Of a stretch of 64,000 nt of DNA, positions 3,443-43,895 are shown piece after piece. This DNA is from a virus: the IMG/VR virus record IMGVR_UViG_2599185214_000003; one strand, 5' to 3'. The translations under genes were made by a program, and so were the position numbers. The notes below the pieces were generated by a model. It was not told where the DNA came from. It searched no databases and worked only from the letters and a program-made list of their open reading frames with translations. Positions within the stretch are counted from its first letter, which is position 1; each line of letters begins with the position of its first letter.

Positions 3443-3483
3443 ATGATTCCGGGCATGCGTTGCGAAGCGAAACCCTACAGGGG
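3443..3483 (-). promoter_or_regulatory. Late-promoter motif copy 1 (holin)
   Basis: CCCCTGTAGGG-N24-AATCAT, then 6 nt to ATG 3436. Confidence 0.75.
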
Positions 3484-3487
3484 CCTC

Positions 3488-6400
3488 CTACACCTCCGCC
3501 CGCGCTCGCGCCGCCTCCTCGCGCATCTGGGCGCGCATGGCGCGCGGTGCCGTGTCGGCGATCCGCTGGTCCTTCGACTTCTGCATTTCCCGCACACGAC
3601 GCATGACGTCGGGGATGCGGATCAGCATCGGCTGCTCGGGATTCTTGGCGTTCCAGTCGGCCACAGCCGCGCGCGCATCGCGCACCTTCGTCTCGTCCTT
3701 TTCGAAGATGCCCGCGGCCCACTGCGCGCGGATCTCCTGCGCCCGCATGTTGTAGAAGCCCTTGGCCTGCTGGTTGATGCTGTTGGCCTCCTGGATCGTG
3801 GCCACGCTCTGCGGCTGGAATCCGATCGCCTTCAGCGCCGCCTCAAGCTGGGTCGTCTCCAAGACCTTGTACCCCTTGGCGTCGCGGTACATGCCCGTTG
3901 CAGCCATGTCCACGCCCTTCGCAGCGTTGCGCACGGCCGTGGGGGCGATCTCCATCGCGCCCGCTCCAACGTTGCCTTGCGCGACCTTCAAAGCGCCGGA
4001 GAAGATGCGGCTGACGAAGTCGCCCGCGGGCCCGGCGATCTCGAGCACGTCTCGCGTGTGGTTGGTCTTCTGCTGCAGCAGGCCAGTGCCCGGGATCAGG
4101 TTGCCCATGCCCAAGCGGCCCGAGACGTCAAGCGGCGCGCCAGGCAGGCCGCTCACGCCCTTGTCGAGGAAGTCCGCGATGCCCTTCGGCAGCATGGCTT
4201 CCAGCGCTTCCTGGCGCGCCTTCTTCGCCGAGAAGTTGTAGCCCAGCAGCTGGGCCAGCCCGTCGACCGCGTCCTCGATGTCTTCCGCGAACGGCAAGCC
4301 GCCCGAGCCTCCCATCATCATCAGGGTGCCCAGCGCCAACAGCGCGGCGCGCTTCCCTTCCGGTCCACCCTGCGTGTACATGCGGTGCAGGAGCTCGAGA
4401 TAGGCGATGGAGTAGGTCTTGAACGTCATCAGCGTGCCGCCGACGGCGCCGCGCCCCCACTGCATCTTCGAGGCCTTCGAATAGACGAACTGCGTCTCCT
4501 TCACGGCCCGGCTGGCGAACGCGGCAGGATCCGCCTCGCCGCGATCGCGCGCCACGCGGTATGCCGCTATGAAAGTGATGCGGCGGTTGACCTGCTCGGC
4601 CGCGCCGAAGACCTTGCCCCAGGCGAGCGAGAGGCGGGACAGCGCATTCTGTCCGGCAGCGCGCGCCTCGCCCAACCGCGTGCCGTCGCCGGCCCGCAGC
4701 GAGCCCGAGCCGCGGGCCTGGGCCATCAGCTGGTGCACCTCTTGCGGGCTGACGACGCCGTCCTCCTCGGCAGCCTTCAAGGCCTTCGCGAGATCCGGCT
4801 CGTACTGAAAGCCCTTCGTGGCCATGTCCTTGGCGGCGCCGCCCAGCGCCGCGGCCGCCTTGCGCGCTCCACCGAACTGACTGAGCCACGGGAAGGTCAC
4901 CGCCACGGGTTGGGTCATGTTCACGAACGCCGACGCGATCGAACCGCCCAGGTACTGCGCGAAGAGCAGGCCGCGCACGGCCTGGGCCTCCTCCTGCGGG
5001 TTCTTCACATACTCGGCCAAGCGGACCGCCACGTCCTTCAGCTCGCCCTGCTCCTTCGGGATCGCCGTGACCGCTTCGCCCAGGTCGCCCATGTTCAGGC
5101 CGGCGGCGGTCTGCCGCGCGTTGGAGTAGATGAAGCTGGCCAGCACGCGGCCCACGTCCTCGCTGAAGCCGGCGATGCCCTTGCGGTGGATCAGGCGCCG
5201 CATCGCGCTGCGGTTGGTCTTCGTGAGCTTCAGGTACTCCTGGAAGGCCTGGTCCTGTGCGCGATCGCCGGTGGAGTCGAGGCCCAGCGCGTTGCCAAAC
5301 AGCTCGAGTGTTTCCGGTGTCACGCCGGCGAACATCTTGAAGGCCTCCTCGGACAGCGTGCCCTGCCCCACGGCGTCCTCCCCGAACTCGGCGCGCATGC
5401 GCGCCGCCATCGTGTTGGCCTCGCGCGCGGTCTCGAACAAGCCGAAGTACTGCCGGTCGCCCTTCGCGTCCACGACGTCGACCGTGTAGCGGCCGAAGCG
5501 CGACAGAGGCGCGTAGCCGCGCGCCTGCAGGTCGCGCACCTTGTCGGCCCGGTCGATGATGCCGTTGGCGGTGTTCATCAGCATCGTGGAGCGGTCGGGC
5601 TGGTCGGTGGCCAGCTGCGCAAGGTGATCGCGGATCAGCACTGCGGCCGCCTGCGCGTCCGGCGCATCCATCACCATCGTGCGCAGGCCCTTCGCATCAT
5701 CGCCGGCGAAGCGCAGCATGTCGGCGCGCGCCATGGTGTCGAGGCTGCGGTTCGTCGCGTCTCGGAACTCTCGGTACAGCGCGACCTGGTCATCGTTCAG
5801 CTGGAACATGCTGCGCAGCTCGGCGTCGCTCCAGACGACCCCGGGCTGCAGCATGCGCGATTCGTAGCGTGAGGCCACCGCCTTCTCGTAGGACTCGAGT
5901 GGCATGCCCTGCCAGGCCTTGAGCATGCGCTCGTCGATCATGCCGTTGCGCAGCAGGCGCTGCGCCTTCTGCTCGGCGGTGAACCCGGCCGCGGCATCGA
6001 TCAGTTCCTGCACCTGCACAGGCTTGCCCTGCTCGTCTCGCGCCCAGGTCAGCGTTCCCTCGAAGACGGGCTTGGCCACTGCCGTGTTGGCGGCGGCGGA
6101 GATCGGCGACTTCTTTATGTCGCGCCACGTTTCGAGCTTCGGCAGCAGCTTGGGCGCCAGCTCAGCCGCGTCGGTCGCGTAGTGGCTCACGTCGTCGACG
6201 AAGCCCTGGGCAGCATCGAACACCGGCTTGAAGGCCGGCGAGCGCTCTGCCAGGTTGTACATGGTGCCGATAGTCTTGTGCCACCAGCTGAGCCGGCCTG
6301 GCGCGGAGAATGTCTTGTTGAGCTCGGCCGCAGCGGTGCGCGCGTACTCGCCCACGGTCGACCGGCTGAACATGATGTCCGGGTTCGACTCATCGAAGGT

Positions 6401-43169: not shown

Positions 43170-43296
43170 CCCCGCTTCCGGGCATCCATGGGGCCGGCGC
43201 CTGCTCGCCTCGGCTTTCCCAATCCCTTCCTCCGTCCCTTCACCCGTTGCCCGGGTCGAATGCAGGTAGGTCCGGCAGTCACGCTTCACAAATGTC

Positions 43297-43373
43297 TGGT
43301 TGCGATGGGCAGATTTGAACTGCCGACCACTGGGTTATGAGCCCTGTGCTCTACCAGGCTGAGCTACACCGCG
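43297..43373 (-). tRNA. tRNA-Met(CAT), initiator-type
   Basis: 77-nt cloverleaf with encoded CCA; C1:A72 mismatch, G2:C71, C3:G70, three G:C pairs at the base of the anticodon stem, TTCAAAT T-loop. Confidence 0.92.
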
Positions 43374-43895
43374 ATCGAACTTTGCCCCGTTCGCCGCCGG
43401 CGCGCCCGCCCTACAGGGGGTGGCGAACAGCTGGCCCTGGTTCGGATCGATGCGCGCCTCGAGTGCGGTCACCTTGCGGCGCAGTTGCTTCACCTCCTCG
43501 CCGAGCTCGGCCGCCAGGATGGCTGCGTTGCGGCCGGTCTCGATCGCGGCGGCCTGGGCAGCGGCGCCGGCCATGAGGTTGGCCAGGGCGCGGTCCTCGC
43601 GCGGCGTGAGCGTGAGCACCTCGTCGCCGATCTCGATCTTCACCATGCCATCGGGCATCACCGTCTTCGACATCGGGCGCGCCGCGGGATGCTGGACGGC
43701 CGGGACGTAGACGCCGCGCTGCACGCGCAGCAACATGCCGTCGTCGGTCAGCGTGCCCAGCCGGTCGTCGATGACGGTGAGCTTCAGACCCGTGAGCTCG
43801 GCGAGCGTCTCCCGAGTCACGATCTGCTCTTGGTTGTGCAGGTCCTGCACGGCTTCGAGCACCAGGGCGGTTGTGGATTTGCGGGCATCGGGCAT
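43335..43895 (-). CDS. Winged-helix DNA-binding protein, candidate late activator
   Basis: VTRETLAELTGLKLTVIDDRLGTLTDDGMLLRVQRGVY wHTH pattern; last protein gene before the late region; its 3' end overlaps promoter copy 8 and the tRNA. Confidence 0.7.
   Translation of the reverse strand: MPDARKSTTALVLEAVQDLHNQEQIVTRETLAELTGLKLTVIDDRLGTLTDDGMLLRVQRGVYVPAVQHPAARPMSKTVMPDGMVKIEIGDEVLTLTPREDRALANLMAGAAAQAAAIETGRNAAILAAELGEEVKQLRRKVTALEARIDPNQGQLFATPCRAGAPAANGAKFDRGVAQPGRAQGS
43379..43419 (-). promoter_or_regulatory. Late-promoter motif copy 8 (tRNA/ncRNA cluster)
   Basis: CCCCTGTAGGG-N24-CAAAGT, then 5 nt to the tRNA 5' end. Confidence 0.7.

Follow-up and report, generated by a model that had tools for sequence, protein, structure and literature searches.

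The window analysed here is a stretch of 64,000 nucleotides (nt) with a G+C content of 66.8%, namely the minus strand of a 66,385-bp provirus record of IMG/VR, and the element in question is a short box found eight times in it, each time at a fixed distance upstream of a promoter-like hexamer and at the head of a late gene or gene group. The terminase, portal, capsid and tail genes of the window are about 73-76% identical at the nucleotide level to those of the Pseudomonas phages F116, H66, LKA5 and relatives, and the PHROG assignments are consistent with an F116-like virion module; judged by this gene content, the window is an F116-like provirus, i.e. it belongs to a temperate phage. F116 itself is a classical generalized transducing phage of Pseudomonas aeruginosa. 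The host of the present provirus is probably Variovorax, because the nearest homologs of the window's proteins are found in that genus. Between about 54.7 kb and about 1 kb the genes lie on the minus strand, and the late region starts just under 43.9 kb. For comparison we used the whole genomes of F116, five related proviruses (G001-G005), Shewanella phage Y11 and Acidovorax phage AP1, together with 18 further loci from IMG/VR, another 57 from there which contain the exact 16-mer CCCTGTAGGGTTCGAC, and 35 prophage loci of bacterial genomes. In the numbering of the loci F116 is L004, AP1 is L044 and Pseudoalteromonas phage Y7 is L048.

Box and hexamer form a composite site

The box, written MCCCYGTRGGG, has eight exact matches in the window, all of them on the minus strand, while shuffled sequences gave a mean of 0.27 matches and none of 100 shuffles reached eight. 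In plus-strand coordinates the boxes start at 3473, 12908, 15771, 34675, 36040, 41618, 42558 and 43409. The fixed spacing on which the original prediction insisted holds as well: CCCYNTRGGG-N24-nAnnnT occurs eight times on the minus strand and not once on the plus strand, while 200 dinucleotide shuffles averaged 0.065 occurrences and had at most 2. The early region (43.4-64 kb) and the opposite strand contain zero boxes, and the sites, all on one strand, each head a late unit as had been claimed, those of a tRNA and of a non-coding RNA (ncRNA) included. With a position weight matrix (PWM) trained on the relatives and excluding the window, the eight sites were the sole matches above 8 bits; seven of them score 25-38 bits and the tRNA site 11.8 bits, which is within the range of the shuffles (maximum 12.9) because the TTCG part is missing from it. 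The promoter at the tRNA would thus be argued for by its conservation in relatives and not by its PWM score. The original prediction read these sites as activator-dependent late promoters, and this is supported, in that every comparative test we ran fits it.

Some of the earlier description needs amendment. The box of the ncRNA site is real but starts at 42558, not at 42557, and the hexamer found 24 nt from it is GAACAT, the AACATT named before being 25 nt away; relatives also have GAACAT at this position. TTCG does follow the box in seven of the eight sites, with an offset of 0-1 nt, but not at the tRNA site, and the pattern CCCYGTRGGGNTTCG with mismatches was uninformative owing to this varying offset. 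As to the stated lack of a -35 element, a generic sigma-70 scan of 32-44.5 kb indeed gave zero consensus promoters, but a weak TCGAC(C) is present in most sites: TCGACC at -35 to -30 matches TTGACA in four of six positions with a 17-bp spacer. The motif had also been called phage-specific, but it is not peculiar to this phage: many phages that infect beta- and gamma-proteobacteria have it in common. A scan of related prophages, which had been proposed as a check, found the composite site recurring with box and hexamer kept.

Conservation pattern of the site

We pooled 140 non-redundant composite sites, of which 108 have a spacing of 24 nt and 31 a spacing of 25 nt, and computed the information profile from the 108. 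A contiguous 19-bp block from -48 to -30 is conserved, with the consensus CCCCCTGTAGGGTTCGACC. The second conserved block consists of G-14, A-12, A-11, A-9, C/A-8 and T-7, and here it should be kept in mind that some of the profiled positions are fixed by the site-selection rule, A-11 and T-7 having been used to select the sites. The information is about zero at -29 to -16 and upstream of -48 (-55 to -49 included) in the 108 aligned sites. At orthologous sites, i.e. those at terS, the scaffold-like gene, the giant gene, the lysis-end gene, the tRNA and the ncRNA, box and hexamer are kept and the intervening spacer changes its sequence and not its length. As it appears from these alignments, the conservation pattern is the footprint of a two-part promoter, and neither that of an RNA motif nor that of a coding constraint. 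With +1 placed at the ATG (see below), the core CCCY-NT-RGGG spans -46 to -37 and has its centre at about -41.5 to -42. The core promoter elements (TCGACC and the hexamer) are present but weak, and box, putative -35 and putative -10 are arranged as in class II activator-dependent promoters.

The alternative that the box is an RNA-level signal in one long late transcript, be it for processing, for antitermination of the nut/put kind or for an RNA-binding protein like CsrA, has to be weighed against this pattern. The element is strand-specific and intergenic, a CCC..GGG mini-hairpin is possible in which the double change seen in CCCCCGTGGGG keeps the pairing, and a CsrA-like protein is encoded in the phage family (F116 annotation), all of which would suit such a signal. 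Yet a stem of 3-4 bp is too weak and its pairing is often broken (19 C/A cases), and the central bases of the box vary between G, A and C, as is typical of a DNA site. Nor would an RNA signal need a fixed 24 nt to the hexamer, or an ATG or tRNA end 6-7 nt further on, and the terminator directly upstream of one box and the self-contained ncRNA unit (both described below) do not agree with a single long transcript. We therefore consider the RNA signal very unlikely and keep to the reading of the sites as two-part promoters.

Other readings of parts of the site were tried and dropped. The box as an intrinsic terminator was rejected, its stem having only 3-4 bp and no consistent T-run, and GGAAC near the hexamer as a -35 of the extracytoplasmic function (ECF) type was rejected as the tRNA and the ATGs follow within 6-7 nt. 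The box as a strict dyad for a dimer was given up as a firm claim, being weakly supported at best. In Pseudoalteromonas phage Y7, a distant relative, the box upstream of 7575 and 30848 reads CCTTAC-N5-GTAAGGTTAGAC; its left arm is complementary to GTAAGG, but the two are further apart than the arms of the CCCT-GT-AGGG of the window, and a dyad of fixed geometry is thereby disfavoured.

Predicted start sites and leaderless mRNAs

The position of the first ATG past the hexamer was determined in the 140 sites. It is at an offset of 6 nt in 32 cases, of 7 nt in 24 and of 8 nt in 6, with other offsets having 0-2 cases each, so that in 62 of the 140 sites an ATG is present 6-8 nt past the hexamer. 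The window has this arrangement at three genes, viz. terS (ATG at 41580), the giant gene (12871) and the gene of a 103-aa (amino acid) protein (3436), with offsets of 7, 6 and 6 nt respectively. No Shine-Dalgarno (SD) sequence is found ahead of these three ATGs, while a recognisable SD is present at several other genes of the phage, e.g. the capsid gene at 33354 and the gene at 15712. The three ATGs head the longest open reading frames (ORFs), and the differences among relatives downstream of them resemble codon changes. The scaffold-type sites keep a C|A step where +1 is predicted, and the mature 5′ end of the tRNA is as far from its box as these ATGs are from theirs. The simplest reading of these positions is that transcription starts 6-7 nt after a -10 element of the sigma-70 type, and if so, about half of the promoters would give leaderless mRNAs. 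For terS, the giant gene and the 103-aa gene, the predicted +1 is the A of the SD-less ATG, and their mRNAs would therefore be leaderless.

The public annotations differ from this at terS. The annotated terS start of F116 (22851) is in frame and 75 nt downstream of the leaderless-type ATG (22776), and in AP1 the annotated start is a TTG (18320) which is 18 nt upstream of the conserved ATG (18338). If the leaderless reading is true, the public start-codon calls for terS of F116 and AP1 would be corrected by it. Leaderless mRNAs are thought to be rare in Proteobacteria, and it would mean that the genes for the terminase, the lysis end and the giant polyvalent protein are translated from such mRNAs in this group. 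As a speculation, the supply of an initiator tRNA by the phage might favour leaderless initiation.

Units headed by the putative promoters

The first promoter in the order of transcription has its box at 43409-43419 and the hexamer CAAAGT at 43379-43384 (43379-43419, minus strand, as are all units below), with a predicted +1 at about 43372-43373. It heads a tRNA-Met(CAT) of the initiator type at 43297-43373 (ARAGORN; Rfam 57.7 bits) and is conserved before the tRNA in L006-L011; F116 has no annotated tRNA. The 5′ end of the tRNA is 5 nt past the hexamer, and the predicted +1 would be position 1-2 of the tRNA. Reading from 43373 to 43297, the tRNA begins with 5′ CGCGGTG and ends with CATCGCA-ACCA, with GGG-CUCAUAA-CCC as anticodon arm. 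It has, as read from the sequence, the hallmarks of an initiator, namely the C1xA72 mismatch, A73 and the GGG/CCC pairs 29-31:39-41 of the anticodon stem; the initiator feature A11:U24 is absent and C11:G24 is found instead. The Rfam scan gave this tRNA alone above threshold. The stretch that separates the tRNA from the next ORF (42872-43296, about 420 nt) has no convincing coding frame, and would be co-transcribed with the tRNA from promoter 1.

Promoter 2 (42528-42568; 26.5 bits) has the box at 42558-42568, TTCG at 42553-42556 and the hexamer GAACAT at 42528-42533, with a predicted +1 at about 42521. Orthologous sites are present in L006, L009-L011, L014-L019, G002, G004 and G005. It heads an ncRNA unit of about 240 nt (42284-42521) which closes with an intrinsic terminator at 42303-42284 as identified by a terminator scan. 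The ncRNA has a folding energy of -115 kcal/mol (z = -3.2) and contains no strongly coding ORF. Its 3′ end with the terminator (42279-42342) has a sub-threshold match to Rfam RF02278, 'Betaproteobacteria toxic small RNA', of 32 bits against a gathering score of 50. Between this terminator and the terS promoter there is a phrog_16834 gene of about 190 aa (41634-42215), whose third codon positions are not GC-rich and which looks like a moron with its own expression signals.

Promoter 3 (41580-41628; 37.8 bits) comprises the box at 41618-41628, TTCGAC and the hexamer AACACT at 41588-41593, 7 nt before the terS ATG at 41580. It heads the small terminase gene, followed by those of the large terminase and the portal, and the site with its leaderless-type ATG is kept in seven of seven F116-like genomes. 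Promoter 4 (36003-36050; 24.8 bits), with the box at 36040-36050, the hexamer GACGAT at 36010-36015 and a predicted +1 at about 36003, heads a conserved leader and a gene of the N4-gp49/Sf6-gp66 family (34740-36011; Pfam PF13876). In the G002 ortholog the box, the hexamer and the leader are kept and the ATG at 36011 is not, and the true start of this gene is probably downstream of 36011. Promoter 5 (34638-34685; 30.5 bits) has the box at 34675-34685, the hexamer GACACT at 34645-34650 and a predicted +1 at about 34638 (conserved C|AAGC); it heads the genes of the scaffold-like protein (33395-34612) and of the major capsid protein. Its box is preceded, at a distance of 15 nt, by a hairpin resembling a terminator (34713-34700), and orthologs of the promoter are present in F116 (28682), G001-G005 and Y11.

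In promoter 6 (15734-15781; 28.0 bits) the box CCCCCGTGGGG at 15771-15781 is followed by the hexamer AACAAT at 15741-15746, with a predicted +1 at about 15734, and the site heads a gene of 668 aa (13706-15712) which has an SD; the ortholog in F116 is at 45732. Promoter 7 (12871-12918; 35.2 bits), with the box at 12908-12918 and the hexamer AAGACT at 12878-12883, 6 nt before the ATG at 12871, heads the giant gene, which encodes a polyvalent virion protein of 3127 aa (3488-12871; Pfam ART-PolyVal, LPD1 and LPD3). Orthologs of this promoter in G001, G002, G004 and G005 have a varying spacer and a fixed ATG. The 3127-aa protein (ART-PolyVal is an ADP-ribosyltransferase) also matches DarB-like antirestriction PHROGs, and its equivalent in F116 is split into gp59 and gp60. 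Promoter 8 (3436-3483; 30.5 bits) has the box at 3473-3483 and the hexamer AATCAT at 3443-3448, 6 nt before the ATG at 3436. The lysis end begins here with the gene of the 103-aa protein (3125-3436), which has a single hydrophobic segment, and the promoter has orthologs in G001, G002, G003, G005 and F116 (at 59203).

A weak ninth candidate, CTGTAGTGTTTGG followed after 25 nt by TAGCCT (22744-22785, minus strand), had also been proposed. It lies in the 3′ end of an Hc3-like gene and upstream of the gene at 22080-22667. The site is conserved in relatives, being kept in F116, G001, G002 and G005, and Shewanella phage Y11 has the canonical CTGTAAGGTTCGAC at this place; but it scores below 8 bits when the spacing is set to 24 nt, the actual spacing being 25 nt, and its conservation is confounded by coding constraint. 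We regard it as a possible promoter.

Candidate activator

The candidate for the late activator gene (43335-43895, minus strand) directly precedes the first box and is the final gene ahead of the late region. It encodes a protein of 186 aa of phrog_8117 (E = 1.6e-57) which is a homolog of F116 gp37 and is annotated solely as 'hypothetical' in every source; the family has 668 homologs at E <= 0.001. Its ORF runs through the box of the tRNA promoter into the tRNA and ends there with a TAA that belongs to the 'AUAA' of the anticodon loop, and the last 35 or so residues look conserved only because they are encoded by the promoter and tRNA DNA. In an AlphaFold2 model (predicted local distance difference test score, pLDDT, 77), the protein has an N-terminal winged helix-turn-helix (wHTH), a small beta domain and a helix of 50 residues, and the predicted wHTH superposes on the DNA-binding domains of DtxR/IdeR with a root-mean-square deviation of 1.3 A over 61 residues. 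A profile search with the candidate against the sequences of the PDB gave nothing relevant.

On matching the protein with the box across genomes, we found the phrog_8117 homolog to be the only non-structural protein of the window that is also present in F116, Y11 and AP1, and all four carry the box with the same 24-nt spacing, AP1 also having the same leaderless-type ATG. Of 30 IMG/VR records with the exact 16-mer, 26 encode a homolog, and the remaining 4 are exactly those in which the match has neither the hexamer nor the ATG. If these four are taken as chance matches, all 26 records in which the box is bona fide encode the homolog. AP1 and G031 have no F116-type capsid and yet possess both the protein and the box, and therefore the link is not only one of shared virion ancestry. 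In the reverse direction, the 35 prophages found through the protein have 38 composite sites on the strand of the gene vs 7 on the other. These prophages are from Variovorax, Pseudomonas, Acinetobacter, Psychrobacter, Azomonas and others, and the box is GC-rich (CCCCCTCTAAGGTTAGAC) even in the Acinetobacter genomes with a G+C content of 37-42%. Divergent homologs pair with variant boxes, e.g. TTAGAC and TGGAC. The phrog_8117 protein is, on this co-occurrence and gene position, the best candidate for the activator, and we give it roughly an even chance of being it.

A wHTH protein with a DtxR-like domain could equally repress, and the boxes might then be sites of a repressor or of another DNA-binding protein (for lysogen silencing, packaging or partition) that stand next to ordinary host promoters by chance. 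Against this, the site is upstream of and overlaps the -35 region and does not cover the -10 or +1, the core elements (four of six and about three of six matches, none found in the generic scan) are too weak to act unaided, and the candidate gene is placed where late activators sit. Moreover, a separate cI-like repressor is annotated in F116, and the window ORF at 54999-55754 matches the Xre repressor of AP1. A role of the boxes in repression or DNA handling is thus highly improbable, and activation remains the function that we propose for the protein in what follows.

Inverted repeats around the hexamer

In the sites with a nearby ATG, the hexamer is often flanked by a GC-rich inverted repeat. 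The terS site of the window reads GCGCGCG-GAACACT-CGCGCGC-ATG (41581-41606), and that of the 103-aa gene has the arms GCCCGG/TCGGGC (3437-3461). Relatives (L085-L141 among them) have at the same place the arms GCCCGG/CCGGGC, GCCGGG/CCCGGC, CCCTCC/GGAGGG and CCCGCC/GGCGGG, i.e. the arm sequences covary between phages. The mean stem of the 62 ATG-proximal sites is 4.53 bp, as compared with 3.20 bp in arm-swap controls (maximum 3.65 in 200 trials), and 1.86 bp at sites without a nearby ATG. Stems of at least 5 bp are found in 33 of the 62, with loops of 6-8 nt and a 3′ arm which ends 0-1 nt before the ATG or inside it. On comparing an RNA with a DNA hairpin by the extensions around the hexamer, G:T was found in 23 cases vs 17 for A:C, numbers which favour neither of the two.

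These repeats would allow another division of the site, in which box and TTCGAC are a self-sufficient promoter for a phage-modified polymerase or a phage sigma-like factor, transcription starts about 8-12 nt past TTCGAC, and the hexamer is the conserved loop of a 5′-leader hairpin with its end at the AUG, so that the mRNAs are led by hairpins instead of being leaderless. The long stems, the covariation of the arms and the excess over the arm-swap controls would fit this, as would the fact that the strongest conservation is contiguous over -48 to -30. It does not account for the hexamer and the 24-nt spacing being kept at stemless sites (scaffold, ncRNA and giant gene), nor for the stem being absent from half of the leaderless-type sites. 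The invariant positions are also those of a sigma-70 -10 (A-11 and T-7), followed at 6-7 nt by a purine, and no sigma or RNA polymerase gene is present among the ORFs scanned. We regard this division as unlikely and retain the hexamer as a -10 element.

Even so, the leaderless subset may be a distinct design, in which a -10 in a hairpin loop together with an initiator tRNA forms a coupled gate of transcription and translation under a new wHTH activator family; this is conceivable, though we doubt it. In a DNA version of such a gate, an extruded hairpin could present A-11 and T-7 in single-stranded form and aid the melting of a GC-rich promoter. In an RNA version, the hairpin would be formed only in read-through transcripts and bury the SD-less AUG, and translation would come solely from the activator-dependent starts.

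Proposed mechanism

Taken together, we consider it moderately probable that the sites are activator-dependent, class-II-like late promoters of an F116-like phage, with the phrog_8117 protein as activator and transcription starting 6-7 nt past the hexamer. Each promoter would consist of a 19-bp upstream element (about -48 to -30), an unconstrained stretch of 17-18 bp and a weak -10 of the sigma-70 type. The wHTH protein would be made from the last early or middle gene and bind the CCCCCTGTAGGG part centred near -42. Host RNA polymerase with the primary sigma would read the -10 and the poor -35-like TCGACC, and would be recruited or stabilised by the bound protein in the manner of a class II activator. 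Transcription would then start at the A of the ATG in three genes, at position 1-2 of the tRNA at site 1 and at the start of the ncRNA at site 2. The SD-less genes would be translated only from transcripts started at these promoters, and their expression would be tied strictly to the activator. Sigma-70 use, the activator's identity and the way in which it would act are what we infer from sequence patterns and from the co-occurrence of protein and box.

Several points weigh against this mechanism. The candidate protein falls in no Pfam family and matches no known activator in sequence, and its Foldseek match is limited to a generic wHTH at an E value of about 3e-3. Shared ancestry confounds the joint presence of protein and box, as most box phages are F116-like and only AP1 and G031 break the link, and in 4 of the 35 protein-bearing prophage loci there is no box within the DNA examined. 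The tRNA site has no TTCG or -35-like part and a low PWM score. The box is not a clean dyad, with C-44/A-39 in 19 sites, and positions -43 and -40 (T-43/A-40 to C/G) are only weakly associated (Fisher p = 0.008, uncorrected for relatedness). The activator model does not account for the inverted repeats that covary around the hexamer. Both the start sites and the late timing are deduced from sequence and gene content, searches of sequencing runs with 40600-44000 of the window and with the F116-like locus L021:6000-7900 having listed no RNA run.

Prophages related to F116 are common in Pseudomonas, Acinetobacter, Variovorax, Shewanella and others, and for their late genes a candidate regulon can now be given down to predicted nucleotide starts, with a candidate activator named from a protein family annotated only as 'hypothetical'. 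The box can be used as a marker for the annotation of late operons and as a tightly phage-dependent promoter part. Neither the motif nor the late transcription of the F116 group was found described in the literature, though the original F116 genome paper (Gene 2005) may list repeats or promoters.

Comparison with known late-promoter systems

In the way it would work, the design is akin to the late promoters of Mu, P2 and P1 and to class II promoters in general, but it belongs to none of the specific systems that were tested. Unlike antitermination by lambda Q, which has a single late promoter with qut, there are at least eight dispersed sites, and no match to the Q family or to Ogr was found among the ORFs upstream of the late region. 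The promoters of T7-like and N4-like RNA polymerases differ in that the present sites have an information gap of 14 nt between box and hexamer; no phage RNA polymerase family was found among the large ORFs scanned, a scan which was not exhaustive for small ORFs. The T4 middle promoters have a MotA box centred at -30 and depend on sigma appropriation by AsiA. As in these, a phage box replaces or overlaps the -35 and the sigma-70 -10 is retained, whereas here the box reaches to -48 and no homolog of MotA or AsiA was seen.

In P1, the late promoters act with Lpa and the host SspA and contain a 9-bp inverted repeat near -22. The present sites share with them a TANNNT-type -10 without a good -35 and one phage element repeated at the late operons, but have about zero information at -29 to -16. 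The late promoters of P2, 186 and P4 are served by the zinc-finger activators Ogr, B and Delta with host sigma-70 and have TGT-N12-ACA near -55. Common to both is a set of about four or more late promoters, a small phage activator (here a candidate) and host sigma-70 (here presumed from the -10); the difference is in the information, which is about zero upstream of -48, and in the candidate, which in the model is a wHTH and not a zinc finger.

At class II promoters (CRP/FNR at -41.5, lambda cI at PRM and cII at PRE), the activator touches region 4 of sigma and the N-terminal domain of the alpha subunit. The core of the present box, if +1 is the ATG, would likewise be centred at about -41.5 to -42 and adjoin a weak -35. 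Instead of a dyad of 16-22 bp, the element is short (12-19 bp) and largely asymmetric, and the activator would be phage-encoded and of an uncharacterised family.

Mu has dispersed late promoters (Plys, PI, PP and Pmom) with a -10, a poor -35 and a C site overlapping the -35, and C is a small helix-turn-helix (HTH) protein encoded just before the late genes. A Pfam scan of the candidate and nine neighbouring ORFs gave no match to the Mor/C family. The box is unrelated in sequence to the C site and the candidate differs in its predicted build (wHTH, small beta domain and long helix); about half of the F116-type promoters, unlike those of Mu, would be leaderless with an inverted repeat around the -10, and a tRNA and an ncRNA would be driven as well. 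In the overall plan the two are nevertheless alike, each with dispersed late promoters that have a -10, a poor -35 and a conserved upstream site, and with a small HTH gene, in the present phage a candidate, just before the late region.

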